Part shown: in pieces, positions 3,212 through 56,310 of the stretch | How the letters are laid out: each line of letters starts with the position of its first letter | How positions within the stretch are numbered: the first letter of the stretch is position 1 | Assembly: GCA_016928775.1 (NCBI GenBank) | Contig: JAFGKD010000094.1 | Coordinates: 9,504 to 73,503 of the forward strand | DNA: 64,000 nt | Reading direction: 5' to 3' | DNA from: Candidatus Zhuqueibacterota bacterium | GTDB taxonomy: Bacteria > Zhuqueibacterota > Zhuqueibacteria > Residuimicrobiales > Krinioviventaceae | Position numbers and translations under genes: made by a program | Notes under the pieces: generated by a model | The model's database searches: none | What the model was told of the DNA's origin: nothing | What the model saw: only the letters and a program-made list of their open reading frames with translations

Positions 3212-3282
3212 AAAGATGCTCGAAGAAAAGAATGATCTTTTCTCCGAGCCTTTTGGGTTGATTCTATTTTAAAAACGTACAA

Positions 3283-9384: not shown

Positions 9385-9393
9385 ACAGTTTGC

Positions 9394-9609
9394 CTATGCT
9401 GCTTCTTCCATCTTCTTTCTCAGACTCAGGGGACGCATATCTGTCCATACCTCTTTAATATAAGCGAGGCATTCATCTTTTTTGCCGGATTTACCAACGG
9501 ATTTCCAACCGAGAGGTATCTCTTTATCAACCGGCCAGATGGAATATTGTTCTTCATGATTCTTCACAACGTTATAAGTCGTGTTATCGTCTTTGTCATC
9601 CCAACTCAT
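9394..9609 (-). CDS. MbtH-like protein
   Basis: 71 aa. [60 protein letters not shown] carries the invariant MbtH signature (N-x-E-x-Q-x-S-x-WP ... P-x-GW ... C-L-x-Y-I ... WTD-x-RP). Confidence 0.9.
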
Positions 9610-12368: not shown

Positions 12369-15300
12369 TTATCCTGCTAATGAGCTTACGACATCCTCCA
12401 ACTCTGAATTGAATGTTTTTGCCAGCCTTCGAATAGTGCGCTCTTTATATAAATGTGCGCTATATAACCAACGAACATGCAATTCTCGTCCACTGACAGA
12501 TGCGACAATGTGCAAAAGCGCACCTTTTGATTCAGTCGAGAATTGCTCATCGCGGATGCGTTCCGGCGCCATCTGAAAGGGCAAAGCCACCTTTGTATCA
12601 AATTGATCGAACTGGCCGAGATAATTAAAATTCACCTGCGCATGATTGGTCTGTAAAAAAGCCGTCGACGCATCATTTTTCAAATATTTCAGAATGCCAT
12701 ACCCGACGCCACGATCGGGGACTGCCGCCAATTGATCGTGTATAGCAAGAATCTGCTCGCGCAAGTCCGTACCGACCAGTTCCAGATTAAGATAAAAAAT
12801 ACTGGTGAACCATCCCACCGTACGAGACAAATCGACATCTTCAAACAATGGCTCTCTTCCATGACCCTCCATTTCAACGGCAAGATAATTCTGTCCCGTC
12901 CATGGCGTCAAAGCACGTAACAGCGCCGTGAGCAGAACATCGTTGATGTTCGTGCCGAGTTTTTTGGGAATATCTTGCAACACCTTGTTCGTCACCTCAG
13001 ATGACAACGACAGGGTCAGTTGCTCGGCAGAACCATAGGTGTTTTCGTGACTGTCAAAATCGCGCGGCAAGGAATAGGGTGCAAAGCGCGCCTGATTCTC
13101 CTGCCAGAAATGAATTTGCTTTGCCGCGGCCTCGGATTGTGCATAATGCACCAGCCTGTTCGCCCAAACCTTGTAGTTAGTCGTTCTCGGCGGCAACTGG
13201 ATCGGTTGGTTTTCGCTCAATTGACCATAAATATTGAGCAAGTCTTCCAGGATAAACCGCCAGGAGACGCCATCGGTGATTAAATGGTGTAATACCAGCA
13301 ACAACCGCGAATGTTTTTTCATCCTGAAATATATAACTTTGAGCAGCGGTGCAGTGCCGAGATCAAAGGTTTTTTGTACTGCCGCAGCTTTCTCCTCGAT
13401 GAGTTTTTTGACCTCCCAGGATCGAGAGTCCGTCACATCGACCATCTCAAAGGGAAGGTTGTCGATGGACTCGACAAATTCCTGTCGCCACTCGCTTTCC
13501 TGCTGCTCAAAACGTAGCCTGAAGCAATCATGATGCTGCGTCATAATTGTCAGTGCATGCTGCAAAATGTCGAGATCGAGATCATACGCCAAAGCAACCA
13601 TGAGTGACGTATTGAACTGCTGCGGTGCCAGTGTATGATGCTCAAAAAACCAGTGCTGAATCGGCGTCAGGGGCGCCGGGCCGACTGCTTTTTCCTGTTC
13701 AACAGATGTCGGATCAACAGCCTGTGCCAGGTCCGCCAACTCTGCCAAATTACCCGCCTGAAACATATGACGCGGCGAAATCTTGAGTCCAGCCTGATTG
13801 GCGCGGGAAATCACTTGAATGCTTAATATCGAATCACCGCCTAGCTCAAAGAAATTATCATAGCGCCCAACCTGTTCAGTGTGCAGCACCTGCTTCCAGA
13901 TATCCGCCAGGATGCGCTCGTCATCGGTTTCCGGTTCTGCAAATTCGTGTTCAAACTCGGGACGAATCGACTCGGGCAGCGGCAGAACTCGCCGGTCAAT
14001 TTTGCCGTGTGCGGTGAGCGGAAAGGCGGTCAATCGAACAAAATGCGCCGGCACCATGTAGTCGGGCAGCTTTTCTTTCAGCACTGTACGCAGCTCATTC
14101 ACCGTCACCGATACCGATTCATCCGGAATAACATAGTAGGCGGCCAATTTTTGATCTCCCGGCTTATCTTCGCGCAGCAGCACAAGAGCCTCTTTGACCT
14201 CCGGATGTGTGTTCAAAACAGATTCGATTTCGCCCAACTCGACGCGGAAGCCGCGGAGTTGAACCTGATGATCGATACGACCGAGATACTCGATATCACC
14301 ATTTGCCGTAACGCGAGCCAGATCGCCGGTCTTGTAGAGTCGTGCTCCCGGTTGATCGGCAAACGGATTCGGAATAAATTTACCTGCTGTCAATTCGGGA
14401 CGCCTCAAATAGCCGCGCGCCAAACCGGCGCCACCAACGTACAGCTCGCCCGGCACCCCGATCGGCAAAGGCTCATAATTTTGGTCAAGAATATAAATCT
14501 GCAAATCCGGTATAGGGCCGCCGATCATACTGCCCGGCGCCGATTCAATATCCAACTGCGCCAGCGGCCGGTAGGTCACATGCACTGTCGTTTCGGTGAT
14601 ACCGTACATATTGATCAACTGCGGCTTGACATAGCCATGTTCTTCAAACCAGGGCTTGAGACTACCGAGCTCCAGCTTGTCACCGCCAAAAATCACATAG
14701 CGTAATTTCAACTCCGGAGCCATACCGTCGAGCTCTTCTTGTTGAATGAGCTGCCGGAACGCTGACGGCGTTTGATTGAGCACGGTCACGCCCTTTTCAG
14801 CCAACAATTTGTAAAAATTCTCCGGTGATCGACTCACCATATAAGGTACAATGACAACCTGACCGCCGTAAAACAGGGCGCCCCATAATTCCCACACCGA
14901 AAAATCAAAGGCAAAAGAGTGGAACAGTGTCCAGATGTCACGTTCGTCAAAATGATACCAGTTTTCGGTGGCATGAAACAAACGCGTGACGTTCTCATGG
15001 CACACCATCACACCTTTGGGCGTGCCCGTCGATCCGGATGTATAGATCACATAGGCAACATTCTGCGGCGACACAGTGACGTTGGTATTTTCGCTGGTCT
15101 CGTATTCAATGAGCGCCCAGTCCGAATCAAGGCAGACTTGTCGGGTTTCCACACCGGATAATTCTTGTGCAATAGCCTCCTGTGTGAGCAGCAGTTTCAT
15201 GCCCGAGTCCATCAGGATAAAATCCTTGCGGTCGGCGGGGTACATTGGATCGATCGGCACATAACCGGCGCCGGCTTTGAGAATGCCAAGAATGCCGATG

Positions 15301-26522: not shown

Positions 26523-26567
26523 TTATATCACCGTAATAATTCTCAACAAAGCTTAAAAGCAACCCGA

Positions 26568-29500
26568 TCAATCTGTTTGGATATCGGCCAATTTGCGACG
26601 TCGGCTCTCGCGAGAGACAGCGGTGATCGCCGGTATGTCCTCTTTGGGCGCTGTTAGTTTGGCGTGTTCGACGGCCTCGGCCAATCCGGCTACGGTAGGT
26701 TGTTCAAACAACACGCGTAGCGGCAACTCGACATGAAATTGCGTGCGCATCCGCGACATAAATTGGGTCGCTAATAAAGAGTGGCCGCCGAGATCAAAAA
26801 AGTTGTCGTTCACACCAACCTTATCGACGCGCAGCAGCTCCTGGCAAATTTCGACGAGCTTTTCTTCCGTCTCATTTCTCGGCGCGACATATTCCACCTG
26901 CAAATCAGGACGTGACAAGTCGGGCGCCGGTAGAGCTTTGCGATCAATTTTGCCGCTCGGCGTCAATGGCATTTCATCTAAATAAACAAAAGTTGCCGGC
27001 ACCATATAATCGGGCAGTCGATTTTTCATATATAGTCGAAGATCATCCACTGTCGGCTTTTCGGTTGTTTCAAAAACACAATAGGCAACCAGTCTCGTAT
27101 CGTCCTGACGTATTTCTTTGGCCAACACAATGACATTTTGCACGGACGGGTGCTCCGAGAGAACCGCTTCAATTTCACCAAGCTCAATGCGGAATCCACG
27201 CACTTTGACCTGATGATCGATGCGACCTAAAAATTCAATATTGCCGTCGGGCAGATAACGAACCAAATCACCGGTGCGATAAAGACGCGAGCCGCCGACC
27301 GGATCAAAAGGATTGGGAATAAATTTTTCCGCGCTCAAGTCGGGCCTGTTCAAATAACCGCGCGCCAGACTCGGTCCACCAACGCACAATTCGCCGGCGA
27401 CACCAATAGGTGTCGGATTAAAGTGTGCATCCAGGATATACAGCTTGGCATTGTCGATCGGGCGACCAATGGGTGGTCCCTGCGGAAAACGGCCATCGCA
27501 CAAAAACATGGAGGCGCAAACGGTCGTTTCCGTCGGTCCGTAGGCGTTAAAATAGTGCCGACCGTGTCGCCAGCGTTCGACCAGTTCCGCCGGACACTTT
27601 TCACCAGCGGTGATGATGGTATGCAGGTCCGGCAAATCGGTCTTTGGCACCACGGCCAGTACCGAAGGCGGCAGTGTGACCGTGGTGATTTTTTGATCGC
27701 GCAAGACGGTGAGCAAACCATCACCCGTGGTCAAATTTTCCTGGTCGGTAAATACCAGGGCAGCGCCATTCAACAACGCCATCACCGTCTCCCACACAGA
27801 CGCATCAAAACTCATCGGCGCAAATTGTAGAATACGTTTGTCGGGATGAATGTTGAATGCCGTCTTTTGTGCCTGTGCCAGATTAATCGCTCCCTGGTGC
27901 TGCAGCATCGTGCCTTTGGGTTTACCGGTCGAGCCGGAAGTGTAAATGACGTATGCCAGATTGGACGACAGTATATTCAAATCTAAATTAGTCTCTGCAA
28001 AAGCCGCACACTGCTCCCAGTCCGTATCGAGACAAAAGACCGTAGCGCCATGCTGCGGCAAATGTTTTTTGATCTCACTTTGAGAGAGCAATATCGAAAT
28101 CCCGGAATCCTCCAGCATATAGGCGATACGGTCTTCCGGATAGGTCGGATCAATGGGCACAAAAGCGGCGCCCGCTTTGAGAACGCCAAGCACGGCGACA
28201 GCCTGATCCAGAGACCGTTGCAGGGAGATGCCGACGAGTTGATCCGGCTCGATGCCCTGGCCGCGCAAATGCCGAGCCAACTGATTGGCGCGAGCATTCA
28301 GCTCCGAGTAGGTCAGCTGCTGCTCATTATATATGGCGGCCACAGCATCCGGATGAGTGAGCACGTGCGCTTCAAACACCTCGTGCGCACATTTGTCCGT
28401 TGGGAACTCGATATCATTGGCATTCCATTCGTGGAGCAGACGATATTCTTCATTCTCGGGAATGATTTTTATATCATCAACGCGCTGATCCGGCTCCATC
28501 AGCATATTCTGCAACAACAATTCGATATGCTGCAACATTCGCTCGATGGTTTCCGGCTTGAACAAATCGGTATTATATTCAAATTCGAGCGAAATGCCGT
28601 CCGGCGATTCGGCAGCCTGCAGGGAGAGATCAAACTTTGCCGTTTTGTTTTCGCTATCCACAGGTGCCATGCTCAATCCGGGCAATTCGAGGCCGCTCAT
28701 CGGCGTATTTTGCATGACAAATACGACCTGAAACAGCGGACTATGACTCAGATCCCGTTCCGGCTGCAGACGTTCGACCAACATCTCAAAGGGGATATCC
28801 TGGTGCGCATAGCCTTCCAGCGCTGTTCGACGCACCTGCTGCAACAGTTCCAGAAACGTTGGACGCTCATCAAATCGACAGCGCAAAACGAGATTGTTGA
28901 CAAAAAAGCCGATGAGTCCCTCTGTTTCGCTTCGATTGCGGTTGGCGATAGGTGTACCGATATTAAAATCATCTTGATTGGAATAACGATAAAGCAGCGT
29001 TGCAAAAGCAGCAAAAAGCGTCATAAAGAGCGTCACGCCCTCCTGGCGACTGAAAGCAATTGTCGCCCGTGAGAGCTCCGGTGACAAGACTCGGCCCAAT
29101 GTGTCGCCGTGAAAAGACTGCACACGAGGACGCGGGAAATCGGTAGGCAATTCCAGCATACCCGGATTGCCGGCTAATTTTTCTTGCCAGTAGTTGAGTT
29201 GTTTTTCGAGGTTTTCACCCTGCAGGGTGCGGCGCTGCCACTCGGCAAAATCAACATATTGCACCGGCAGGGGCGGCAATTGTGGCGTTTCATCAGTGAC
29301 AAACGCGCGATACAGTTCAGCAATCTCCTGTACCAAAATGCTGATAGACCAACCGTCGCTGATGATGTGGTGCATGGTAAAAAAGATAACGTGATCATCC
29401 GGCGCCACGCGTAAAAGGCGCGCGCGAAACAGCGGCGCTTCTGTGAGATTAAACGGCGTTTGCGTCTCCACAGCCGCCTGCTCGGCGATTAATTTCTCCT

Positions 29501-32951: not shown

Positions 32952-32953
32952 AT

Positions 32954-40855: not shown

Positions 40856-40860
40856 AATCC

Positions 40861-43800
40861 TTATCGTATTTTATCATTTTCTTCTGCTGCTAACAACGCC
40901 TGCACCTCTTCCTCGGACAAGCTCTCGAGTTCGGCCAACATATCATCAATACTCTGCTCTCCGCGTTCCAGTTTTTCGACGGTTTCACTTGTGGATGGTC
41001 CCGCCGCTTCAAGGCTGTGGAGGAGCGTTGCCAACTCGGCAATTGTCGGTTTTTCAAAAATGGTTCTCAGCGGCATATCGATGTGGAACGTCTCTTCCAG
41101 CTCCGCCATAAATTGGGTGGCGAGGAGTGAATGACCACCCAGTTCGAAAAAATTATCATGTACGCCGACGTGTTCAACCTTGAGCAATTGTGCAACAATC
41201 GCTGCCAATTTTTTCTCGCGCTCATTCCGTGGTGCGACAAATTCGCTGCTCAAGTCCTCGCGAGAAATTTCCGGTTTGGGCAAGGCGCGCCGATCGATTT
41301 TGCCGCTGGGCGTGAGAGGAAATTCATCCAAAATCACAAAAGCGGACGGGATCATATAATCCGGCAATTCAGTGCGACAGTTCGATTTCAAATCAGCCGG
41401 AGAGCTATCCTGTTTTGCAACAATATAAGCAACGATGCGCAAATCGCCGGGCGTATCTTCGCGAACCAGCACGATCACATCGGTCACGCCCGGCTGTTTG
41501 GACAGCACTGCTTCGATCTCGCCCAGCTCGATGCGAAAACCGCGTACTTTGACCTGAAAATCAATGCGGCCAAGGAATTCGATATTGCCGTCCGGCAAAT
41601 AGCGGACAAGATCACCCGTGCGATACAGCCGCTCTCCCGGTTTACTGCTGTATGGATTGGGAATGAACTTGTCGGCGGTCAAGTCCGGGCGATGCAAATA
41701 GCCGCGCGCCAGGCCAACGCCGCCGACGCACAGCTCTCCGGGGACGCCAATCGGCACATGCGACCAATATTTATCCAGAATATAGAGCTGAAAATTCTGC
41801 AACGGCTTGCCAATGGGCGGCGCTTTGCTATCATTTTCATGCGTTTCATAATAAGATGCACAAACCGTGGTCTCGGTTGGTCCGTAGGCATTCACATATT
41901 GCCGTCCCACACCCCACTGCTTGACGAGCTCCAGCGAACACGCTTCACCGGCAGTGACAATGGTTTTGAGCGAAAACAGCTCATCTCTGGGCATCACGGA
42001 CAACACCGACGGCGGCAAGGTCACAATATTTACTTGCTGTTCCTTGATGACATCTCGTAGTCCCTGACCCGTCGTGAGATTTTCCTGCGGTGCGTAAACG
42101 AGACACGCACCGTTGAGCAGGGCCATCACCGTCTCCCACACCGACGCATCAAAGCTCAGAGGTGCAAATTGCAGCACCCGATGGCCGGCTTCTATATGGA
42201 AGGCCGCCCGCTGGGCGCGAAACAGATTACACAATCCCCGATGCGGCAGCAGTGTGCCCTTGGGCTTGCCGGTGGAGCCGGAGGTATAAATAACATACGA
42301 CAGGTTTTCCGGACTGACCACCACATGTGGTGCTGTATTCGGCAGAGCGGCAATTTTATCCCACTCTGAATCAAGACACAGATGCGTCGCTGAATTCTTT
42401 GGCAATGTCTCGGCGATGGCCGCTTGTGTCAGCAGCACTGCAATCGCCGAGTCTTCGATCATATAGGCTTTGCGATCTTCGGGATAGGTTGGATCGATAT
42501 TTAAAAATCCGGCACCGGCTTTCAAAATGCCCAAAATGGCGACGGGCACATTCAGCGAGCGCTCCAGACAAAGGCCGACAATATCGTCCACGCGGATGCC
42601 CTTGTTCACAAGATAATGCGCTAATTGATTGGCACGTCGATTCAGCTCGGCATAGGACAAAAACTCGGAACCGCAGCGCGCCGCTTCAGCCTCGGGTTGC
42701 CGGAGGACCCACTCGGCAAAAAGCTGATGCACAGTATGGTTATCGGGATAATCGACAGCGGTATTATTCCAGGCATAAATCACCCGCTGGATTTCATCGT
42801 TCGACAACAGCGGCAGCTCGGAGACCGGGCATGTGGGATGAGACAAGATACCCTCGACTATAATCTGGTAGTGTCTGAGCATTCTCTCTATTGTCGAGCG
42901 GTCGAACAAATCTGTATTATATTCAAAATGACAAAACAGTCCTTCGTCGGTCTCGGCTGTATTCAACGTCAGATCATATTTGGAGGTTTTGCTGTCCGCT
43001 TCCACCGGACTGATCGTGATATTCGGCAGATTGAGCGGCTTTAACGGAGTATTTTGCAGAATAAAAGCCACCTGAAACAACGGCGAATGGCTCATTTCAC
43101 GCGCAGGCTGCAAAGCATCGACCAATTGCTCGAACGGAATGTCCTGATGCGCATAAGCATTCAGGGTCATGTCGCGCACCTGGCGCAACAGCGATCGAAA
43201 ATCCATATCTCGCGAAAAATTCGCTTTGAGTACCAGGGTATTGACAAAAAAGCCGATCAGTTTTTCCGTTTGCGAGCTGGTGCGATTGGCGATGGGTGAA
43301 CCGACCAGGATTTCATTCTGACCGGAATAACGATGCAACATGGTCTGAAAGGCGGCTAACAGGAACATAAACGGCGTTACGCCTTCTTTTTGGCAAAATG
43401 TCCTGATGCGGTCGGCAAGTGATTTTGGCAATATCGACCTGACGTTAGCGCCGACAAACGTCTGCATGACCGGTCGCGGTCGATCGGTCGGCAGCTCGAG
43501 CACCGGCGGATTGAGGCCGATCGTCTCTTTCCAAAAATTGAGTTGTTTGTCCAGCACATCACCCTGCAACCAGTTATGCTGCCACACCGCATAGTCGGCA
43601 TATTGAATGGGCAGTTCTTCCAACGGGGACGGTTGATCCTGTGAGAATGCTGTGTAAAGCTGGGCAAACTCATTGACCAGCACACCGACCGACCAGCCAT
43701 CAGCAATGGTGTGGTGCATATTAAAAACAACGACATGCTCTCTGTCGTTCATTTTCAGCAATTTGATACGAAAAAGCGGTCCCTGTTCAAGATTAAACGG

Positions 43801-46800
43801 TTTCTGCGCCTCCTCGGTCGCTTTTCTTTTGGCACGATTGTCCTGCTCATCCTGCGGCACATCAGATAAATCAATCTTTTCAATATCGCCGGGGAAATCA
43901 TCATGGATAATCTGTCTGGGTTTGCCTTTCGTGGCAGCAAACGTTGTTCGCAAGGCTTCGTGTCGGCGAGTGATTTCAGTGATACTTTTTTCGAAAGCCT
44001 CAATGTTCAAGTGTCCTGACAGTTTGATCGCGCCCGGGATATTATAAAACGCATTATTCGGCGCCAATTGATCGAGGAACCACAAGCGTTTCTGTGAAAA
44101 CGACAATGGAATGTCGCCGGTGCGGTCGGCTTTTTCAATGGGCGGTGCAACGTTTTGTTCGCGCAAGCGTGCTTGCTCGACGAGCAATGTCAGACTGGCG
44201 ATGGTGGGTGTTTCGAAAATATCCCGCAGCGGCAATTCGACGCCAAAAGCATCGCGAATACGCGACACAAGCTGTGTGGCCATAAGCGAATGACCGCCGA
44301 GATCAAAAAAGCTGTCCGTGACGCCCACGCGGTCAAGGCTCAGAATATCCTGCCAAATGGCAGCAAGCTGCGTTTCCGTTTCGTTTCGCGGCGCGACATA
44401 TTCGCGAGACTTGGCAAAGGCTTCCATGTCCGGTTCCGGCAAGGCGCGGCGATCCACCTTGCCGCTCGAGGTGAGCGGAAAGCTCTCGAGCGTGAGAATA
44501 ATGGACGGCACCATATAATCCGGCAACTGATCGCGGACAAAAGATTGCAATTGCGACTGATCGATCGCGCTTCCTTGTTGCGGAATGACGTAGCCAATGA
44601 GCATGGTCTGCCCGTTGGCGTCTTCTTTGGCCAAAACAACCGCATCGCGCACATTATCATGGTGACTCAGTACCGCCTCGATTTCTCCCAACTCGATGCG
44701 AAAACCGCGAATCTTGACCTGAAAATCGATGCGGCCTAAAAATTCAATGTTGCCCTCCGAGGTGTAGCGCGTCAGATCACCGCTACGATACATTCGCTCG
44801 CCCGGAAAATCACTGAACGGATTGGGAATAAATTTTTCCGCCGTCAAGTCCGGCCGGTGCAGATAACCCCGAGCCAGGCCAGAGCCGGCAATGCAGAGCT
44901 CGCCGGGAACACCAATGGGAACAGGTTCAAGATACTTGTTGAGAATATAAAGCTGCATATTGGCAAAAGGTCGACCGATTGGAACGCTGCCGGTGGGCAG
45001 TTTTTCACGCGGTGCTTCATAGCTGGAAGCTGCGACTGTATTTTCTGTCGGCCCATAGCCGTTGATATAGGTGCGTCCGGGCGCCCATCGTCGCACAATA
45101 TCAGGAGTGACGGCTTCGCCGGCGGACACCACAACGCTCAAACGCGACAAATCCTGATGATCCAAAACTGCGAGCAGCGACGGCGGCAATGTGACTGTGG
45201 AAATCGCTTCTTCGTGTAAAAGCTGGTGTAGCTTGTCAAGCGACAAGATAGTCTCGCGCTCCACCAGATACAATGTAGCGCCATTACAAAGGGCCATGTA
45301 AATTTCTGCGACTGAGCCGTCGAATGCCAGCGAAGCAAATTGTAAAACACGGCTTTTTGTGTGAATATAAAAACGCTCACCCAGCGTTTGCACCATGTTG
45401 ATGGCACCACGATGCTGCAGCAGGGTGCCTTTTGGCCTGCCGGTTGAACCGGAGGTGTAAATCATATAAGCCAAATTTTCCGGCAAGGTGACATTTTCGG
45501 GATTTGCTGTCGGCTCGTTTTTGATCTCGGCAGCAAGCCCGAACAGATCAATGGCCTGGATATTATTGTCTATGGAGGATAGAAGTGAGGCGTGTGACAA
45601 TAACAATTTTGCTGCAGAATCCTCAAGAATATAATTCACCCGTTCTGCCGGATAGCCGGGATCAATCGGCACATAGGCGCCACCGGCTTTTTGAATCGCC
45701 AATATGGCGACGATCATCTCAATCGAACGCTCCAGGTAAATGGCGACACGATCTTCGGGACAAATACCTTTTTCCCGCAGATAGTGCGCCAATTGATTCG
45801 CACGATTATTCAGCCCCCGATAAGTCAGCCTGGTTTCCTTGAATTTAAGCGCAATTCGCCGCGGTTGTCGCTCGACCCAGTTCTCAAAAAGCTGATGCAG
45901 ACAGATTGTTTTATCGAACGCTTTGCCTGTCCTGTTCCAATCGGCTACTATTTTCTTTTCCTCAGCCGGATTCAAAAGTTTGATATGAGCAAGCGGCTCC
46001 GAGGCGCGATCGACAAAAGTATACAGAATTCGCTCCAACATGGAGAGATAACGCTCGACTGTATCGTGACGGTATTTTTTTGTTTCATAAGCAATATCCA
46101 GGACCAGCCGATCAGAGAATCCGGCGACCAATGACATCGGGTAATTCACCCGCTCAATCGTATGAAAATCGCTGAATTGCAGACTCGTGACCTGGTTCTG
46201 CATGCTTGCATCAACGGGATAATTTTCAAAAACAACAATGCTGTTGAAAAGGGGCATATTTCGCGGCACACGGCTCCAGCCATGGATATCGACGAGCGGC
46301 GTATATTCATAATCACGCATCTCAACAGCGAGTTTTTGCACATCTTGAAGAAAAGTCAGGCCGGTTTTTTGATCATCAACCCACACCCGGATCGGAAGCG
46401 TGTTGATGAACAGCCCAACCATTTTTTCCACCTCCGGCAATTCCGGCGGCCGTCCGGAAACCGTGGCACCAAAAACGATATCTGTTTCGTTCGTCAAGCG
46501 TGCCAATAACAGTGCCCATGCACCTTGCACGAGCGTATTGACGGTCAACTGATTTTGTCGTGCAAAAGCAAACAGGCGACGGGAAAAATCAACTGAAAAT
46601 TCTCGGGATAGTTTGACATAATCGGCCTGTTCAGCAATCTCCTCATCCCGAATCCGATCTTCGAGCACACAAACCGGAGCACTAAAATCACCTATGATCT
46701 TTTTCCAGAATAACTCGGCATTCTCAAGACTCTGCCGCTGAATCCAGTCAATATAATGCGAATAGGGGCGAGCCGGCGGGAGTTGCACTGGCAGGTTTAT

Positions 46801-47331
46801 CGAATAGGCTTCATACAAGGTAAAAACTTCTTTTAAAACAATCGGCATGGACCAGCCATCCGTGAGCAAGTGATGAAAAGCCCAATAGAGCTTGACCTCG
46901 CTAAAACCGAGGCGGATAATATAAAAGCGCATGAGAGGCGCCCTGGCCAGGTTGAATCCGCGCTGACGATCGGTTTGCAAAAGCTCGGCGAACTTTTGCT
47001 TTTGCTCTTCGGGAGGCAAGGCCGACCAATCCAGCTTGTGCAGTGGCAACTCGACTTCTTTATGCACCACCTGCAGCATTTTGGCGACTTTTTTCCACAC
47101 AAAAGCGGTGCGCAAGCTCGAGTGCCGTTGTATGATGGTGGACAGCGCCCTGGCAAAGGCATCCTCATTCAAGTCACCGTGGATCGTGCAAAAAAATTGC
47201 TCAAAATATTCGCCCACACCTTCATTAAAAACCGAATGAAACAGCATGCCCTGCTGCATGGGGGAAAGCGGATAAATAGCCTCTATATTTTTTGCCTTGT
47301 TTTCTTTCATTTTTTCAACTTTCAAGTTCAA
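40861..47331 (-). CDS. NRPS C (2156 aa): DCL-A-T-C-A-T with a C-terminal docking tail
   Basis: N-terminus IEAIYPLSPMQQGMLFHS (DCL-type C1 motif) and FHHLLTDGWS, then MHHTIADGWS. A3 motifs lie near 45455 and 42280. T domains are FFDLGGHSLMATQ and FFELGGHSLLATQ. The acidic C-terminal tail is AELESLSEEEVQALLAAEENDKIR. Confidence 0.9.
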   Translation of the reverse strand: MNLKVEKMKENKAKNIEAIYPLSPMQQGMLFHSVFNEGVGEYFEQFFCTIHGDLNEDAFARALSTIIQRHSSLRTAFVWKKVAKMLQVVHKEVELPLHKLDWSALPPEEQKQKFAELLQTDRQRGFNLARAPLMRFYIIRLGFSEVKLYWAFHHLLTDGWSMPIVLKEVFTLYEAYSINLPVQLPPARPYSHYIDWIQRQSLENAELFWKKIIGDFSAPVCVLEDRIRDEEIAEQADYVKLSREFSVDFSRRLFAFARQNQLTVNTLVQGAWALLLARLTNETDIVFGATVSGRPPELPEVEKMVGLFINTLPIRVWVDDQKTGLTFLQDVQKLAVEMRDYEYTPLVDIHGWSRVPRNMPLFNSIVVFENYPVDASMQNQVTSLQFSDFHTIERVNYPMSLVAGFSDRLVLDIAYETKKYRHDTVERYLSMLERILYTFVDRASEPLAHIKLLNPAEEKKIVADWNRTGKAFDKTICLHQLFENWVERQPRRIALKFKETRLTYRGLNNRANQLAHYLREKGICPEDRVAIYLERSIEMIVAILAIQKAGGAYVPIDPGYPAERVNYILEDSAAKLLLSHASLLSSIDNNIQAIDLFGLAAEIKNEPTANPENVTLPENLAYMIYTSGSTGRPKGTLLQHRGAINMVQTLGERFYIHTKSRVLQFASLAFDGSVAEIYMALCNGATLYLVERETILSLDKLHQLLHEEAISTVTLPPSLLAVLDHQDLSRLSVVVSAGEAVTPDIVRRWAPGRTYINGYGPTENTVAASSYEAPREKLPTGSVPIGRPFANMQLYILNKYLEPVPIGVPGELCIAGSGLARGYLHRPDLTAEKFIPNPFSDFPGERMYRSGDLTRYTSEGNIEFLGRIDFQVKIRGFRIELGEIEAVLSHHDNVRDAVVLAKEDANGQTMLIGYVIPQQGSAIDQSQLQSFVRDQLPDYMVPSIILTLESFPLTSSGKVDRRALPEPDMEAFAKSREYVAPRNETETQLAAIWQDILSLDRVGVTDSFFDLGGHSLMATQLVSRIRDAFGVELPLRDIFETPTIASLTLLVEQARLREQNVAPPIEKADRTGDIPLSFSQKRLWFLDQLAPNNAFYNIPGAIKLSGHLNIEAFEKSITEITRRHEALRTTFAATKGKPRQIIHDDFPGDIEKIDLSDVPQDEQDNRAKRKATEEAQKPFNLEQGPLFRIKLLKMNDREHVVVFNMHHTIADGWSVGVLVNEFAQLYTAFSQDQPSPLEELPIQYADYAVWQHNWLQGDVLDKQLNFWKETIGLNPPVLELPTDRPRPVMQTFVGANVRSILPKSLADRIRTFCQKEGVTPFMFLLAAFQTMLHRYSGQNEILVGSPIANRTSSQTEKLIGFFVNTLVLKANFSRDMDFRSLLRQVRDMTLNAYAHQDIPFEQLVDALQPAREMSHSPLFQVAFILQNTPLKPLNLPNITISPVEADSKTSKYDLTLNTAETDEGLFCHFEYNTDLFDRSTIERMLRHYQIIVEGILSHPTCPVSELPLLSNDEIQRVIYAWNNTAVDYPDNHTVHQLFAEWVLRQPEAEAARCGSEFLSYAELNRRANQLAHYLVNKGIRVDDIVGLCLERSLNVPVAILGILKAGAGFLNIDPTYPEDRKAYMIEDSAIAVLLTQAAIAETLPKNSATHLCLDSEWDKIAALPNTAPHVVVSPENLSYVIYTSGSTGKPKGTLLPHRGLCNLFRAQRAAFHIEAGHRVLQFAPLSFDASVWETVMALLNGACLVYAPQENLTTGQGLRDVIKEQQVNIVTLPPSVLSVMPRDELFSLKTIVTAGEACSLELVKQWGVGRQYVNAYGPTETTVCASYYETHENDSKAPPIGKPLQNFQLYILDKYWSHVPIGVPGELCVGGVGLARGYLHRPDLTADKFIPNPYSSKPGERLYRTGDLVRYLPDGNIEFLGRIDFQVKVRGFRIELGEIEAVLSKQPGVTDVIVLVREDTPGDLRIVAYIVAKQDSSPADLKSNCRTELPDYMIPSAFVILDEFPLTPSGKIDRRALPKPEISREDLSSEFVAPRNEREKKLAAIVAQLLKVEHVGVHDNFFELGGHSLLATQFMAELEETFHIDMPLRTIFEKPTIAELATLLHSLEAAGPSTSETVEKLERGEQSIDDMLAELESLSEEEVQALLAAEENDKIR

Positions 47332-47373
47332 AAAAAATCACATTCTCGCGCTTATTCCAGCGGGCGTATTCGG

Positions 47374-50300
47374 TCACTCCAAATCCAATTCGGAAAGGAC
47401 ATCTTCTAAAACGTTCCCCGTACCACTCTTCGCATGGATATGTATCGATTCACGGCTATAACCGTCCCCGGATTTACTGTGCTCAACAATATCCCGCACA
47501 TGTTGAATATAGCTGTTCGCAAGCGCTTTGATGGTTTCGGCTTTATAGATTTTGTCACTAAAAAGAAAGCTCATCTGCAATTGATCCTGGACAATTTTGC
47601 CACTCACAAAAATTCGGAACGGTCGACGGCTGTTCGGATCACGTTCATCACGAGATTGCTCATCCGATACGCGAAACCGCGGATCATTCGCCACGTGTTT
47701 AAACTGACCTAAATAATTAAAAGCGACTTGCGGTTCCGGGATGGCCGCCAATTTTGTCGTTATATCAGTGTCCGAGCTGAGATAGCGCGCCAAACCATAA
47801 TAAAAACCGTTTTGCGGAACGGCAGCCAATTGCGCTTTGACAGCCTGGACTTTTTCCGAGAGCGTACCGCTGCCGCTGATATCCAGTTGCACCGGATACA
47901 GTGTCGTGAACCAGCCAATGGTTCGGGAAATATCAATATCTTCAAATAGATCCTCACGTCCGTGCCCTTCGAGCGCAACGCGTAGTTCTGGCTCGCCGGT
48001 CCACGCCGAAAACGCCGTAACCAGCGCAGTCAGGAGTATATCAGTTATTTGCGTTTGAAAAATCCTCGGTACCTCCTGTAACAGAGCGAACGTTTCACTC
48101 ACGGACAACTCGACTGTGAGACTTTTTGTGGATGCTTCCACATCTTCTCCCGGAAAATCAACCGGTAGATCAACGGGGCGCGGCGCCTTCAACCACGGCG
48201 CAACGACCTCATTCGCCAGCGAATCGGCATGCTCGCGCAATTTTGTCGCCCATTGCTTGAATGATGTCGTTTTGGCCGGCAACTGAATCTCCTGGCCGTT
48301 CACCGCAGTATCATAGGCGTGCACAATATCTTCCAATAGAATACGCCATGACAAGCCGTCAATGGCCATATGATGAATGGTGATGAACAATTTATCCGGG
48401 CGCCCTTCCCCCATGTTGAAATAAGCACAGCGGAAGATTGGTCCGTGCATCACATCATGGTTGGATTGCAGCTCGCGCATATGTACTTCCAGCGCCTTGG
48501 CCGCCTCGGCATCAGAGAGCGACATCAAATCAAAAACCTGAAACGGTACATTGTTTTCCGGTCTTGTTATAAACGCAGACCATTGATCTGCCTGCTTGTT
48601 GAAGCGAAGCCGAAGAATGTCATGGTGCTCTATAACTTTGACGATTACTTTTTCCAATAGATCGGTGTTGAGCGAGACCATAACATCCAAGACCAATGAC
48701 TGGTTCCAGTGGTTCACATTGGCAAATCCCTGTTCAAAAAACCAGTGCTGGACGGGGGTCAACGGCACATCACCGGTGACAAGACCTTGTTCCGCATCAA
48801 TGTGAATCCCGATCCCGGCATGCGCGGCCAGGCCGCGGATCGTTGGCGTAGTAAAAATCTGTTTAGGAGAAAGTTTCAAACCGCGCTGAAACGCGCGCGC
48901 GATCACCTGAATGCTGAGAATCGAATCACCGCCGAGCTCAAAGAAATTGTCGTCGATACCAATATCTTCGACACCAAGAACCTGTTGCCACACCTCGACC
49001 AGCACTTTTTCCGTCTCGGTTGACGCCTCCGCATAGTCGGATGCCAGGTCCGAGCGTTCAATCTGCGGCCTGGGCAAGGCCTTGCGATCAATTTTTGCAT
49101 TGGGGGTGAGTGGAAACTTGTCCAAGACGACAAAATAGGACGGGATCATATAGTCCGGCAAGCGCGGCAGCAAAAAGTCGCGCAGTTCAACTGCAGTTGG
49201 TTTTTCCTCGCCCACCAGCGTGTAGTAACTAACCAGACGCTTGTCGCCCGGTTCGTCTTCACGCACCAAAACAATGGTTTCCTTGATGGCGGGGTGCTCT
49301 TTCAGATTCGCTTCGATTTCGCCCAATTCCATGCGATAGCCGCGCAACTTGACCTGATGATCCAGGCGACCGAGGAATTGAATATTGCCGTCTCGCATAA
49401 ACCGCCCGAGGTCGCCGGTACAATAGAGACGTTCACCGTTGTCAGAGAACGGATTGGGGATAAATTTTTCCGCTGTCAACTCCGGACGATTCCAGTAGCC
49501 GCGCGCCAAACCGTCGCCGGAAATACAAATTTCGCCCACAACACCAATGGGCACAGCGCGGCGATTCTTGTCGAGAATATAAATCTGTGCATTGGTCAAA
49601 GGTTGTCCGATGGTCGGCTGGTCTGGAGCGTGATTGACATAACAAGTGGTCGCATCAACCGTGCATTCGGTGGGGCCGTACATATTGTAAATCTGAGTGC
49701 CGCATGTTTGCAAAACCCTCCAGGTTGCTTCGTCGATTGCTTCGCCACCTGGCAGCAGCGCCAGAGGCTTCCAGATGTCTTGTTCAAAAAGCCCGGCGTT
49801 CATTAATAGCTTGAGCTGCGAAGGCACGCAGTCCAGAACATCGATTCGATGATCCTGAATGTAGCACAGAAGTGCCTCACCGTCTGTGCGCACATCCGCC
49901 GGAATGATGCAGAGGTGGTTACCACGCAATAAAGTGACCAATTGCTGTACTGAAGCATCAAACAACAACGGCGCGTTAAGACTGGCAACGAGTTGGCGCT
50001 CCGGCAGATTGGTGTAGATTTGATCCTGCAAGCCGACGAAAAGATTGTATGCCGAGCGCTGCGAAATCATCACACCCTTGGGTTTGCCGGTTGAACCGGA
50101 TGTATAAATAACATAGGCGATATTATCCGGCGCGGACAGATGCACCGGATTTGTACATGGATATTCAGACAGTTTTTCACTGTCGCGATCGATGAGAAAA
50201 ACCTGCTGATTCGAAATCGGTAATTGATCCACAACATGCGATTGGGTGAGCAGATGCGCAAGTCCGGTGTCCGCAAAAATAAACTCGAGTCGTTCTCTCG

Positions 50301-53300
50301 GATAATCCGGATCGAGCGGCACATAACCGGCGCCAGCCTTGAGGATGGCTAAAATAGCAACAACCGAATCCACCGAACGCGTCATGCTCACACCGACGAG
50401 TGATTCCGAGCCCACACCGTGCTTGCGTAGATAATGGGCACATCGGTTGGCACGTTCATTCAATTCGGCGAACGTTACTTGATTATCCTGATCAGAAACG
50501 GCTAAACGATGCGGTGTCCTGTCCACTTGTGCTTCAAACAACGCAGGAAGACAAATGTCCTCCGGCAAGGATTTGCGGTTGCTGTTGAAATCACAGACAA
50601 TCGTATGATAATCAACAGTATCGAGCAAAGTCACATCCCCGACCGGCATGTCGGGATTGCTTGTGAGATTGTGCAGCAAAATTTCGAAATGGTGCACCAA
50701 AGACTGTATGGTCGATTCGTCAAACAGATCGGCGTCGTACTCTAATTGGCCGCGCAGTGTGCCAAAACGTTCGACCATGCTCATGGATAGATCAAACTTG
50801 GCAGCGCCGCTGGAAATCTGGAAGACCGACAGCCTCACGTTTGTGAGCTCGAGACTCTCTAATGCCGATTCCTGCATAGCGAACATGACCTGGAAAAAAG
50901 GCGTATGTTGGGTGTCGCGTTCGGGTTGCAGGGCATCGACCAGCTTTTCAAACGGAATGTTTTGATGATCGTAAGCCTCCAGCGCTGCATTCTTGACTTG
51001 CCGTAAAAGTTGTGCGAATGAAGGATTATCGGATAAATCCGCTCGCAGCACCAGGGTGTTGACGAAAAATCCGATGAGCGGTTCAATTTCCTTGCGCGTC
51101 CGGTTGGCGATTGGCGTGCCCACCAAAATATCGGTCTGATTGGCATAGCGGGCAAGGAGTACCTGAAATGCCGCCATCAGGGTCATAAAAACAGTAGTGC
51201 CGTGGTCACGACTCATTTTCTTAATCGCCTCCGACAGCTCTTTCGAGAGATTGTAAATCACTTCACGTCCCTTGTGCGTCCTGGTCATGGATCGAGGATG
51301 GTCTGTGGGCAATTCCAGAGCCGGCGGCACATCGGCTAATTGATTTTTCCAATAGGACAATTCAGTCTCAAGACGCTCGCCCGAAAGCCATTGGCGTTGC
51401 CAGGCGGCAAAATCAGCGTACTGCACAGTGAGTGGCGGCAATGTCAATGGTTTCTTGTGCAGCAGCGCTTCATGAATTTCCGTGAACTCACGGATAAAAA
51501 CATTCACCGACCAGCCATCGGAGATGATATGATGCATGACAATCACCAGCACATATTCTGTGATCGCCAGACGAATCATTTTCGCGCGAATCAGCGGACC
51601 GTGCTGCAAATCAAAAGGTTTGGCAGCCTCGGCATTGGCGATCTGCTGCGCCAAATGCTCACGATTCTCACCAGCATAGTCGCGCAAATCGACTAATGGC
51701 AATTCGATTTTTAACGCCGGACGTACAATCTGCCGCACGCGACCATCCGCCATAGTATCGAACGTCGTACGCAACGTCTCGTGTCGCTCGATGATAGTGT
51801 TCAAGGTCAATTCAAACACACCCAAGTCGACATCACCCAACAAACGTACAGCTATCGGAATATTGTATTGATTATTACCCGGTTCAAACTGATCGAGAAA
51901 CCAGAGGCGCTGCTGGGCAAACGACAAGTGCAGGTCTTTGTCGCGCGGAACGCGGGCAATGTGCACAACTTTATCAGCCTCGCGCAATTGTTCGGCCAAA
52001 TCTTTTTCCACCGGATAGCCAAACTGCGCTGCCAGGTCCCAGCCAATGTCGCATAAAAAATCATGCTTGTGAAATGTTTTCCATTTATCCGCCACGCTGG
52101 TGTTGATATTTTTGTGCAGATAAAATTTAAAATCTCCGACCATTTGCACATTCTTTTGTACGCCGTCGGTCATCTTTTTGCCTTTGTACGGTTCCAGCAT
52201 GGCGGGCTGGAAGTCGATGCCCAAAAATTTGCACATATGTTCAAGCTCGGCCTGCGGATTGAGCAGAATATCCTCAAAACGCACGCGATGTTGACGCTCC
52301 TGCGGCACATCCTGCAGAAATGCCAAAATATTTTGATTGCTGATAATCCAGATGATTTCGGCCAACTCGCGTCGCGTAAAAGCATGCTCATAGCGAAAAA
52401 AGTTCTGATCCAGCTTGGCTTCGATGAACGAATAAATCATTGCGTAAGGATGGCGCACGAGATGAATATAATGTGCATCCGCAAAATTTTCCTCCGCCCG
52501 CTTGAGAATGTGCGGATCGAACGGATAGGTCGGCGTTTTATCGACAAGCAATCGACCGCCCAAAAGAAGTTGTAGTTCACGATAAAATTCTTTGGTCGAC
52601 AGATTACGCTCCTCATACGCACTCATCAATTGTGTCGCCTCATCGACAGCACACTGTTTAAGCTCCATCAAGGCACGTACGGTCGCCTGCAGCCAGATTT
52701 CCAGGCCTTCCTGGGAAAAGGCAGCTTTGCGTTCCCGCAATGTATTAAAGGTGAGCAGGTCCAATTCCGGCGGCGAGAAGAGCTGTGAATTGCCGGCCAA
52801 CATGACGCGCAGCAATGTCGAACCGGAGCGCGGCGGCGACAGCACAAATACTGCTTTGCTGTTTTTCGGCATGGATTTGATATTTTCCGGTTGTGGCCGC
52901 AGGGGATTGATCAAATCGCGAAATTTCTGCAATTTATTTGCATCAACCGTCACGTCAATCCTGGATTCATCAACGGCCACCTCAAAGTGATAGTCTTTTG
53001 TCGCCTCTTCGCCAAACCTGGATTTTACCTGGTCCGTATAATACTCAGCGATATACATGGACAGCTCGTCGATGGTGGGGGCCTTGAAAACAGCGGCGAC
53101 GTGCGCGGATTCACCCAGGTCTTTTTGCAGCCGATTCATCAGCACCGCCGCCTTTAGCGAATTGCCGCCCAGATCGAAAAAATTATCGTGGATGCCAATT
53201 TTTTCAATGCCCAGCAGTTCTTGCCAGACACCAGCTAAATAAGATTCCAGTTTGTTCCGTGGCGCAACAAAATCGCTGCCGCGCCTTTCAAGTGAGGTCG

Positions 53301-56300
53301 TTGGATCCGGCAAAGCTTTCTTATCGACCTTGCCATTCGGTGTGAGTGGCAGCGCCGCAATCGATACAAAAAAGGTCGGCACCATATAGTCCGGCAGTTT
53401 TTCCAGGAGTGACGTTTTGAGCCGGCCGAGGTCAAGCTCGACGTTTTCGCACGGCACCACATAAGCGACAAGTTGTTTTTCGCCGAGCTTGTTGGCCCGC
53501 GCTAACACCACCGTGTCGGAAATCAGCTCATTCTGCTTGAGCAACGATTCTATTTCCCCCAACTCGATGCGGAATCCGCGGATTTTGACCTGCTGGTCGA
53601 TCCGCTCCAAAAATTCAACAGAACCATCGGTCGTGTAGCGCACGAGATCGCCGGTTTTGTACAAGCGATCACCGGTCACACCAAATGGATTTTGAATGAG
53701 TTTCTCGGCGTTTAATTCCGGACGATTCAAATATTCGATCATCAAACCATCGCCGCCGAGATAGAGCTCGCCCGGCACGCCAACCGGACAAATATGGAGA
53801 TGCCTGTCCAGCACATAATGTATTGAATTGGCAATGGGTTTACCAATAGGAACATTATTCACCCAATCGTCGTCAACTCTGATTTCGTAAAACGTAGAAA
53901 AAGTTGTATTCTCGGTTGGACCATATACATTTAGCAAATGCTGGGGCGGTTCATGGTTTATTGCATGCCTGGTTGCGCTTGCATCAGCCGCTTCGCCGCC
54001 AAACATCATTGTTTTCAGCGATCGAAATGCGCCCGGAATTTCATTTGTCATCTGGTTAAAATAGGCGACCGTCAAAAACATTGCCGTGATGTTTTCGGCC
54101 CGCAACCGCTCGACAAAGGTTTGCGAAGACAGCATCACCTCTTTGCTGATACCGACGAGTCGTGCGCCGGTTAAAAAAGCGCCCCAGATTTCAAAAGTAG
54201 CGGCATCAAACGCCGCATTGGAAACCTGCGCAATAATGTCTTCCGGAGTAATAGTGATGTAATTGGTCTTGATCACCAATCGCGTGATCGCACGATGCGG
54301 CACGACAACACCTTTGGGTTTTCCGGTGGAACCAGACGTGTAAATGATGTACGCCGCAGCCGTCGCCTCGACATGAATGTTCGGATTAGTTATCGGCTGC
54401 GCTGCAATCCTTTCCCAGTCCGCATCCACGGCAATACGGGAAAAATCGCCCAACGGCACCTCATCTGCCAATTGACGCTGCGTCAATACGACCGGCGCCT
54501 GGGTATCGTCCAACATAAAATCAATTCGCGCCGCGGGATAAGCCAAATCGAGCGGCACATAACACGCCCCGGCTTTGAGGATCGCCATGATGCTCACGAT
54601 CATGTCGACCGAACGTTCCATATATATCGCCACTCTGGCCCCGGGCTGAACGCCTATATCGATCAAATGCCGAGTCAGTTGATTTGCTCTTTCATTCAAC
54701 TGACGATAGGTTAATATGTCGTTTTCATACTTGACTGCGACAGCATCAGGTGATTTTTCGACCTGTTCCTCGAACAGGGTGTGCACAGCCCGGTCTCGCG
54801 GATAGTCCGTTTGGGTGTCATTCCATTCGTGTATAATCTGATGCTGCTGTGCGGTTGTGAGCAGTGAATATTTGTCAATTGTATACTCCGGATGTTGCGC
54901 AATGTGACGAAGCAGGGTGAGATAATAAACCGCCATCAATTCAACAGTCGAGCTCTTGAATAGCTCGGTGTTGTACTCGATGGTGCACTGTATCGTCTCA
55001 TCTTTGTCCATCAGCAAAAACAGCAGATCAAACTTGGCGGTCTCGAGCTCCATTTCATAAATATCCATGTTGATATCGGACAGCGACATGGCCTTGAGCG
55101 GCGAGGTTTGCAGATCAAACATGACCTGGAAAAGTGGCGAATGGCTCAAATCGCGATGCGGCTGCACGGTTTCGACGATTTTTTCAAAAGGGATATCCTG
55201 GTTCTCGGTCGCCAGCAGGATGTCGTTTTTCACCCGCTTGAGCAGATCAATAAAGGTGATCTGTTCAGAAAACTGCGCGCGCAGGGCAATAGTGTTGACA
55301 AAAAAACCAACGATGGATTCCAGCTCCTTGCGAAAACGATTGGCAATAGGCGCACCAATGCCAAAATCCTCTTGCTGGGTATATTTGTAAAAAAACAGCT
55401 GTGTCGCGGCCATCAGCGTGTTGAACAGGGATGATTGTTGTTCACGGCTCAACTGTCGCAGCGCTGCCGTGGTCGCCGCATCCAATTCGACTTTGAAATG
55501 GTCACCTTTATGAGATAACACGGACGGACGCTGAAAGTCAGTGAAAATCTCCAGAACCGGCGGCATGCCGTGCAGATAATTTTTCCAATAGACCAATTGT
55601 TTGTCGAGATTGTTAGCCGATACTTTATTGTTTTGCCACTCGGCGTAATCGGCAAACTGTAACATGGGTTCCGGCAACGGCGAAGGTTTGTTGCGACGTT
55701 CCGCTTCGTACAATGTCAAAACTTCCTGCAAAATGATGCCGATTGACCAGCCATCCACAATGATGTGATGCATATTGAGCATCAACACATGCTCGGTTTG
55801 GCTTTTGCTGAGCAGAAACGCGCGCAGCAATGGCGCTTCCTGTAACTGAAAGGCCGTTGCAGCGATTGTTTTGAGCCGGGAAGCGATCTCACCTTCCACA
55901 CTTTCCGCTGCCACATCGGACAAGTCAATGCGCTCAAGAGGGATATCGAGCTGCGCATGTACCTTTTGCTGCGGATTGCCGGTATCATCAATGATATAAC
56001 AGGATCGCAGAATTTCATGTCGCGCCACAACTTGATTGATCGCTTTTTCCATGGCACCAGCATCGATCCGTCCGTTTATCGTGACGGCAGAGGGCACGTT
56101 GTAAAATGCACTGCCGTGGTCGAGCTGATCCAAAAACCACAGCCGCATTTGCGCGGCTGACATGGGATAGGCGTCATGATCGGTCCGCTTGGTGATTCGT
56201 TCTTTCGGTGTCGCCGCCATTCCCTTGAGGCGCATTTTTTTACGCAGTAACTCTAGTTGTTCAGGCGACAAATTTTTCAGTTTTTCAGATATATTCATGG

Positions 56301-56310: not shown

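Follow-up and report, generated by a model that had tools for sequence, protein, structure and literature searches.

A 64,000-nt stretch of DNA (hereafter the window) from contig JAFGKD010000094.1 of the Candidatus Zhuqueibacterota assembly GCA_016928775.1 probably carries most of one hybrid polyketide synthase (PKS) and nonribosomal peptide synthetase (NRPS) assembly line for a lipopeptide, and we hold the explanation set out below, taken as a whole, to be the probable one. Three of its synthetases, here called proteins B, D and F, end in an epimerization (E) domain. The useful result concerns the third of these domains. Protein F is most likely the last synthetase and its E domain the true end of a line without a thioesterase (TE) domain, and a predicted C-terminal D-allo-Thr would most likely be released in trans. 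This appears to be a conserved type of TE-less ending, in which an E domain that lacks a communication-mediating (COM) docking tail, usually on a Thr module, stands beside a sulfotransferase gene. The E domains of B and D are followed by proteins C and E, which begin with condensation (C) domains of the D-peptidyl-accepting (DCL) type.

Proteins B, D and F each close with a thiolation (T) domain of the GGDSI type followed by an E domain, as the original prediction had stated. By regular-expression search and translation, GGDSI, HHxxxDGxSW and EGHGRE were located at residues 2459, 2646 (HHMAIDGLSW) and 2781 of protein B, 2108, 2292 (HHLVMDGVSW) and 2433 of protein D, and 4227, 4412 (HHLITDGVSW) and 4552 of protein F, so that the second His and the other catalytic residues are present in all three. 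A six-frame scan of the window returned exactly three EGHGRE and three GGDSI motifs, each GGDSI lying upstream of an E domain. The E domains of B (47479..48768), D (33065..34366) and F (12372..13676; all coordinates are those of the window and all features lie on its minus strand) scored 99, 114 and 97 bits against the E-specific profile NCBIfam TIGR01720, for which the cutoff is 74.2 bits. Scores against PF00668 were 241-268 bits (241 for B and 268 for D), and the closest relatives of solved structure were the E domains of PvdL, GrsA, TycA, BacC and TycB. The condensation and E assignments in proteins B to F rest on domain-level homology, with E-values of 1e-70 to 1e-125, and not on chance motifs. 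Judged from profile and motif content, the domains that close B, D and F are genuine E domains.

The N-terminal motif of proteins C and E is IYPLSPMQQGMLFHS, the sequences starting ...NIEAIYPLSPMQQGMLFHS and ...NIQDIYPLSPMQQGMLFHS, respectively. Exactly two DCL-type C1 motifs were found in six frames of the window, at 47239..47271 and 32886..32918, in agreement with the claim that just two DCL-initiating proteins are in view. They are preceded by 11 residues in protein C (ATG at 47310) and by 8 in protein E (ATG at 32948), within the 20 residues that had been estimated. All other C domains carry a C1 motif of the LSF(A/S)Q(Q/K/E)R(L/M)WFLDQ type. Solved structures with known donor stereochemistry served as the DCL references, the homolog collection containing only one case of an E and a C domain in cis. 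The DCL domains of protein C (45940..47310, including the COM-acceptor head MKENKAKNIEAIYPLSPMQ at 47272..47310; located by structure matches and PRK05691) and protein E (31587..32948, with the COM-acceptor head MNTNNIQDIYPLSPMQ; located by structure matches) were matched by the N-terminal C domain of McyB at 391/423 bits, the post-E C domain of PvdL at 329/316 bits, BacC (C5) at 267/312 bits, SrfA-C at 257/294 bits and TycB at 245/243 bits. These values are far above those for structures of the L-accepting (LCL) type (Txo1/2, TycC), which reached at most 156/120 bits, and an internal C domain ranked the solved structures in the opposite order, LCL above DCL. Along the PvdL-type model NCBIfam PRK05691, the N-terminal domains of C and E align at the post-E C positions 3251-3716, and the internal C domains at the LCL position 1717-2196. 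A neighbour-joining tree of 17 C-like domains gave three clades, E (3), DCL (2) and LCL-like (12), in which the N-terminal C domains of C and E stood apart from the LCL clade. The predicted LCL type of the internal C domains is thus borne out by C1 motif, structure ranking and tree alike.

Dual E/C domains are marked by an N-terminal HH[I/L]xxxxGD motif (PMC1894796). This second-His motif was not found in proteins C and E, whose sequences ..GMLFHSVFNEGVGEY and ..GMLFHSIYSPESGTY contain one His each. Both DCL domains come directly after E modules, with a gap of 63 nt between B and C and of 5 nt between D and E. From these homologies the N-terminal C domains of proteins C and E are of the DCL type, and the E/DCL assignment is an ordinary, textbook one.

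The E-domain junctions had originally been described as using no docking tails, which did not hold. A COM donor is made up of a seam, a lid and a helix that come after the E domain's final helix, and its acceptor consists of the N-terminal end and the beta-strands of the C domain that comes next (PMC12402864); COM docking is the sole docking type known at E/C interfaces (PMC12402864; PMC9113145). The C-termini quoted earlier for B (..LEDVLSELDLE) and D (..LNKGKGK) were as described in the translation, and beyond the last E helix B has 34 further residues and D has 36, the usual length of a COM donor. The extension of B (47377..47478) follows an E core that ends ..RDIVEH, as aligned to PvdL and TycB, and finishes in the acidic helix NVLEDVLSELDLE. 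The tail of D (32957..33064; PEHKPEAETPPKYDLAKLDKRQLGKVLGQLNKGKGK) is basic in flavour and aligns with the TycA COM donor ..TPSDFSVKGLQMEEM and the cis E-C linker of PvdL ..TPSDFPLAQLSQAQLD. EGHGRE lies 198 residues from the C-terminus in B and 201 in D. The corresponding distance is 193-208 residues in 67 of the 73 E-terminated proteins among the 206 homologs collected, and the tails of these 67 have the pattern ..HCxSPxAGGxTPSDFxLAxLDxxKLDKVLxxLxKGKKK or an acidic form of it, ..LSxDELDxLLxEI(E/D).

An orthologous locus (P0190/L018), 63-75% identical overall, keeps the terminal helix of D (DKRQLGKVLGQLNKGKGK) at 18 of 18 positions, with the linker before the helix diverged. The tail of protein C is likewise identical at 30 of 30 positions and the heads of D and E are near-identical, so that in this locus the docking peptides are far better conserved than the remainder of the proteins. 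The heads MKENKAKNIEAIYPLSPMQ and MNTNNIQDIYPLSPMQ of proteins C and E align from residue 5-10 of McyB, SrfA-C and TycB. Because of the length of the B and D tails, the alignment of the D tail and the conservation in L018, the E junctions are taken to use classical docking tails. The alignments identify the tail of D as a COM donor and the short N-termini of C and E as the COM-acceptor 'thumb' ahead of the (Y)PL(S/T)PMQ strand; the tail of B appears COM-donor-like, of acidic flavour, in its length and its amphipathic end, an assignment weaker than that of D. At these two junctions the E domain of B or D would epimerise the T-bound peptidyl residue, the tail of about 35 residues would dock on the acceptor 'hand' of the next protein's DCL domain, and that domain would take a D-configured donor only. 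This part of the line is textbook and of annotation value only. It shows the collinear order of the subunits, and the E/DCL pairs fix D-residues at NRPS positions 4 and 8, which have a Gln-like code (module 2 of B) and a basic-type code (module 2 of D), respectively.

Protein F (12369..26522; 4717 aa, from translation, motifs and gene call) has the acidic head MPDDYSNNVDINNIELPQVEEDVY and the order condensation-adenylation-thiolation (C-A-T) three times, followed by C-A(Thr)-T-E. It stops at the E core's final helix, ..LAKTFNSELEDVVSSLAG, with 0 residues beyond the core. Its E domain aligns to PvdL up to ..LAQAYLAELQALI(EHC), and the distance from EGHGRE to the end is 166 residues, against the 193-208 of the 67 tailed homologs. 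By alignment and by end distance, a COM donor is absent from F. A reading of its tail ..LEDVVSSLAG as an acidic COM helix like that of B was considered and rejected. In a distance tree of 75 terminal E domains, built from the core only, F grouped with L011, P0134, P0204 and P0119 in 83 of 100 bootstrap replicates, a value that is not decisive for such a tree; the COM helix is absent in all five. The motifs PIQxWFF, HHxxxDGxSW, EGHGRE, RTVGWFT and FNYLGQ are preserved intact in F and throughout the tail-less clade.

Adenylation (A) domain codes were extracted with a PheA reference, which reproduced DAWTIAAICK. The four codes of F, DVGEIGSVDK, DATKIGEVGK, DASTVAAVCK and DFWNIGMVHK, point to Orn-like, Asn, Tyr and Thr specificities for modules 1-4, the last being the canonical Thr code. 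This Thr code also occurs in the terminal modules of L011, L022 and P0110, and the clade members P0134 and P0119 have the terminal code DGALLGAVAK. A Tyr-like penultimate code (DASTVAAVCK or DASTIAAIGK) is kept in F, L011, P0134 and P0119, even where the last code differs. The A3 motif of the first A domain of F (residue ~636; window ~24600) reads YTSGSTGKAKG, with Pro replaced by Ala, unlike the other A domains of the cluster.

A stand-alone sulfotransferase gene (11192..12313; PF13469) begins 55 nt 3' of the F stop codon. A tail-less E domain followed at once by an orthologous sulfotransferase was found in five loci, namely the window, L011, L015, L021 and L022, which range from 46 to 67% in GC content. 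In the closest, L021 (JGI Ga0105103_10002349), identities are 59% for the end of F, 61% for the sulfotransferase, 53% for the major facilitator superfamily (MFS) exporter and 66% for a neighbouring secreted protein, and an MbtH gene lies directly before this homolog, which carries a type IX secretion system (T9SS) signal (L021 4787..5627, compared with window 7195..9609). The sulfotransferase is 43% identical in L011, a metagenome-assembled genome (MAG) of the Cytophagia, and in L015, an ENA contig. In L011 it is followed by MFS, type II thioesterase (TEII) and phosphopantetheinyl transferase (PPTase) genes, and in L022 (JGI Ga0315298_1007724, GC 67%) the sulfotransferase (42%) and the same three genes are found at 39-42% identity. 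The MFS gene thus follows the sulfotransferase in all four loci that are long enough (window, L011, L021 and L022), and TEII and PPTase genes are present in three (window, L011 and L022). L011 contains an extra gene for a 617-aa choline/carnitine O-acyltransferase-like protein between MFS and TEII (13571..15421). In a control locus, L024, a tailed E domain (distance 201) is followed by a DCL-starting open reading frame (ORF). The picture is of a recurrent line ending in several uncultured lineages, with no TE domain, a COM-less E domain (usually on Thr) and a sulfotransferase gene that always adjoins it. To our knowledge this ending is uncharacterised so far.

Neither a TE domain nor a third DCL motif was found in the window or in the adjoining 5.7 kb that are supplied by the Logan contig L001, which is 100% identical to the window over 17.7 kb and continues past position 64000. 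Since F lacks a COM donor, it would have no downstream condensation partner. The line would be collinear and end on F, with the full-length chain on the last T domain of F, where the terminal E domain would turn the C-terminal Thr into D-allo-Thr. Release would then be in trans, and the sole candidate within the cluster is a free-standing alpha/beta thioesterase of the TEII type (8614..9384; GHSMG, PF00975). This protein matched RifR at 170 bits and, further, the free-standing chains 3qmv and 5ugz, which we take to be RedJ and ClbQ, enzymes that off-load intermediates. The adjacent sulfotransferase would O-sulfate the product, perhaps on the conserved penultimate Tyr or on the Thr at its end, and export of the product would fall to the MFS pump.

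Several points weigh against F as the end of the line and against the release proposed for it. RifR-like type II thioesterases usually edit, and L021, the closest ortholog locus, has neither TEII nor PPTase at the corresponding position; because of the missing TEII in L021, the thioesterase is an uncertain releasing enzyme, a candidate only. No penicillin-binding-protein (PBP)-type thioesterase or beta-lactamase-fold protein was found among the genes of the window or the flanks of L011 and L022. The tail of B has no TPSDF-like lid motif and does not align to solved COM donors, the docking interactions are themselves predicted from the peptides, and the bootstrap value of the tail-less clade carries the limit given above. 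The sequence covered comprised the window and the 5.7 kb beyond it, with 8.1 kb of Logan contig SRR13394437_26196 upstream of the first PKS gene and the remaining genome outside, and a DCL-starting, TE-ending protein may be encoded elsewhere in the genome.

Such a protein is what the original prediction had drawn from the unpaired E domain of F, namely a third DCL-initiating protein outside the window. If the E domain of F were an ordinary internal junction, this third protein, probably ending in a TE domain, would take the chain, as expected from classical systems in which each E domain has a DCL domain next. The missing TE domain in the window and the 8.1 kb of upstream sequence leave room for it. 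F has no COM donor of the kind seen in B, in D and in 67 of the 73 E-terminated homologs, however, and the genes after it serve tailoring, export and accessory functions, with unrelated secreted proteins encoded beyond them. Four other loci show this ending too, and no ORF with a DCL C1 motif was present on the neighbouring 5.7 kb. Related clusters also have no NRPS gene upstream of their start: in L016 and L017 (72%) the upstream end is a fatty acyl-AMP ligase (FAAL) gene with no extra NRPS gene before it, preceded in one by a gene for a T9SS-sorted protein and in the other by genes for a short-chain dehydrogenase/reductase and an ATP-citrate lyase. A third DCL-initiating protein is therefore unlikely, and the reading of F as the last synthetase is preferred. 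For genome mining this means that a C-terminal E domain alone is no ground for inferring a missing downstream protein, and that the presence or absence of a COM tail of about 35 residues is a simple discriminator. The ending seen in these loci points to a lipopeptide family whose members are probably sulfated and carry a D-configured C-terminus.

The strict adjoining of tail-less E domain and sulfotransferase in five loci also suggests a different role for the sulfotransferase, in termination itself. In this view the enzyme would transfer a sulfonate group to the beta-hydroxyl of the C-terminal (D-allo-)Thr on its T domain, sulfate would serve as leaving group while the thioester is cleaved or afterwards, and the outcome might be either a CurM-like decarboxylative elimination to a C-terminal enamide or a sulfazecin-like sulfonation on the carrier before an unusual release. 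The terminal Thr code kept in the window, L011 and L022, the presence of a CurM-type sulfotransferase (ST) domain in protein B and the lack of a TE domain all fit such a role. The stand-alone enzyme, on the other hand, is not CurM-like: against solved structures it gave only weak matches, to 2z6v and 2zq5, which are deposited as uncharacterized proteins and are presumably mycobacterial sulfotransferases. P0134 and P0119 carry DGALLGAVAK with a Tyr-like penultimate code, and plain O-sulfation of Tyr fits equally well. Sulfotransferase homologs at 34-40% identity moreover occur without an NRPS nearby (in 9 of 10 genome loci), which means that the family in itself is not specific to NRPSs. We consider a role in termination distinctly unlikely. 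The same doubt attaches to the broader proposal that tail-less terminal E domains define a distinct conserved termination cassette (C-A(Thr)-T-E, sulfotransferase and MFS, with or without MbtH, TEII and PPTase), with the sulfotransferase acting on carrier-bound D-allo-Thr for sulfate-activated off-loading, which we regard as a long shot. If true, sulfate-activated off-loading, for example by decarboxylative elimination to an enamide, would be a release logic undescribed for NRPSs. Least probable of all is that the E domain of F survives as a functionless leftover from a downstream module since lost, with simple hydrolysis giving the chain an L-configured C-terminus: the COM tail could have gone together with its partner, and a module remnant exists elsewhere in the cluster (a 238-aa ORF, see below), but F and the whole tail-less clade retain every E core motif intact, and the domain is kept across loci of widely differing GC content, which argues for selection.

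At the junctions between T and C domains, the SLSxEE tails and LSPEKR heads are present as first described, and these junctions would use a separate helical docking pair. The SLSxEE/LSPEKR helical type is widespread among cyanobacteria-like NRPSs. A phmmer comparison of the fused C tail and D head with the Protein Data Bank (PDB), aimed at a likeness to solved class 2 (cyanobacterial/myxobacterial) docking domains, gave no relevant match, the peptides being too short for this comparison. The extension of this pair to every other junction failed at E-to-F, where neither the SLSxEE/LSPEKR peptides nor a COM-type junction is present. There, a basic tail ..SRESRRRKLADIQTD meets an acidic head MPDDYSNNVDINNIELPQVEEDVYVLP (26522..26610, from the E stop to the F start), which would act as a third docking pair. 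Acidic heads like that of F occur in the homologs P0116 and P0087. A non-collinear order, with F docking onto C or E, was considered and rejected: three SLSxEE tails fit three LSPEKR heads in gene order, and two tailed E domains fit two DCL heads in gene order. It is true that two recognition systems coexist in one line, as had been noted, but this is not unusual, bacitracin synthetase being built likewise, and the E-to-F pair would make a third.

All large ORFs of the window lie on the minus strand in an operon-like array. The line would run from a FAAL-PKS-NRPS hybrid to a ketosynthase-acyltransferase-ketoreductase-acyl carrier protein (KS-AT-KR-ACP) module, a C-A-T protein and then proteins B, C, D, E and F, for a total of about 14 amino acids. 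The KS-AT-KR-ACP module (59715..64000; Pfam) is cut by the window end, and the full protein on L001 has 1525 aa. It is followed by the C-A-T protein (56317..59694; ORF, motifs and Logan gene call), with an LSPEKR head and the tail ..NLSEEELQRLLSEE, and by protein B (47374..56298, the ORF extending to 56310; ORF, motifs and Logan gene call), which has 2974 aa from its ATG and the order C-A-T-ST-C-A-T-E. From translation and motifs, protein C (40861..47310) is DCL-A-T-C-A-T with the docking tail ..LESLSEEEVQALLAAEENDKIR, protein D (32954..40855) is C-A-T-C-A-T-E with the head ..LASLSPEKRRLLELKL, and protein E (26568..32948) is DCL-A-T-C-A-T with the basic tail already given. The named relatives closest to these synthetases are KSB1 and Calditrichota MAGs, which, taken with the T9SS sorting domains of the two secreted proteins described below, suggests an uncultured host resembling the FCB group.

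Upstream of the window, L001 encodes a 3097-aa hybrid whose visible C-terminal half is dehydratase (DH)-ACP-C-A-T, and for which the gene table gives AMP-binding (FAAL-type), KS and CurL-like KS-AT linker families. Between the hybrid and the KS-AT-KR-ACP gene lies the 238-aa ORF (L001 4607..5323; ~64.4-65.1 kb in window numbering). It joins the first ~100 residues of a C domain to the end of an A domain and a T domain and appears to be what a deletion left of a whole module; an ORF of this type is absent from the ortholog locus L016. Downstream of the sulfotransferase are the genes for the MFS exporter (9699..11030; Pfam), an MbtH-like protein (9394..9609; Logan gene call with PF03621, and translation), the TEII and an Sfp-type PPTase (7829..8602; Pfam and gene call), which forms the downstream end of the cluster. 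Two secreted proteins encoded 3' of the PPTase, both with the T9SS domain Por_Secre_tail, are unrelated to the cluster (Pfam); one has PPC, Ig-like and F5_F8 domains (3283..7194) and the other Kelch repeats (1823..3211).

The ST domain of protein B lies between its first T and second C domain (52012..52857) and is strongly homologous to the 'activating' sulfotransferases of CurM and OLS (PDB 4gbm at 235 bits and 4gox at 202 bits). The A code of the module that bears it is Val/Ile-like. Candidate targets are the KR-derived hydroxyl of the preceding PKS module or a Tyr loaded by the FAAL-PKS-NRPS hybrid. Integrated ST domains are known in NRPSs, as in the cyanopeptolin synthetase OciA. In the ACP-ST-TE of CurM the ST precedes a TE domain, whereas the ST of B lies mid-line, with a T domain before it and the next C domain after it.

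The B-to-C and D-to-E junctions resemble those of TycA/TycB, SrfA-B/SrfA-C, BacB/BacC and McyA/McyB, in which T(GGDSI)-E and a tail of about 35 residues are likewise split from the next protein, which starts about 10 residues before (Y)PLSPMQ(Q/E)GMLFH, as do proteins C and E. They differ from these classical COM systems in that the tail of D is strongly basic (..LNKGKGK), a flavour common in cyanobacterial, Chloroflexi and KSB1 homologs, and in that the tail of B has no TPSDF lid; there is no further difference. In bacitracin synthetase, a pair for T-to-C docking (BacA/BacB) and one of the COM type (BacB/BacC) occur side by side in one line, but the T-to-C pair here is of the SLSxEE/LSPEKR helical type, which gave no match among solved docking domains in the comparison of short peptides above. 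For the ending of F, the nearest comparison is with the synthetases of surugamide (SurE) and pentaminomycin/BE-18257 (CppA), TE-less NRPSs whose last module carries an E domain and whose products are released by a PBP-type thioesterase in trans. F is like them in its last module of C-A-T-E, the lack of a TE domain, the predicted D-configured C-terminal residue and the release in trans. In those systems the thioesterase is of the PBP type, whereas the only hydrolase here is the RifR-like type II thioesterase; the conserved neighbour here, unlike there, is a sulfotransferase, and the hosts are uncultured and non-actinobacterial. Because the cluster has no PBP-like thioesterase, the ending of F is not classed as a member of the SurE type, and is instead a functional analogue of the SurE-type TE-less NRPSs.

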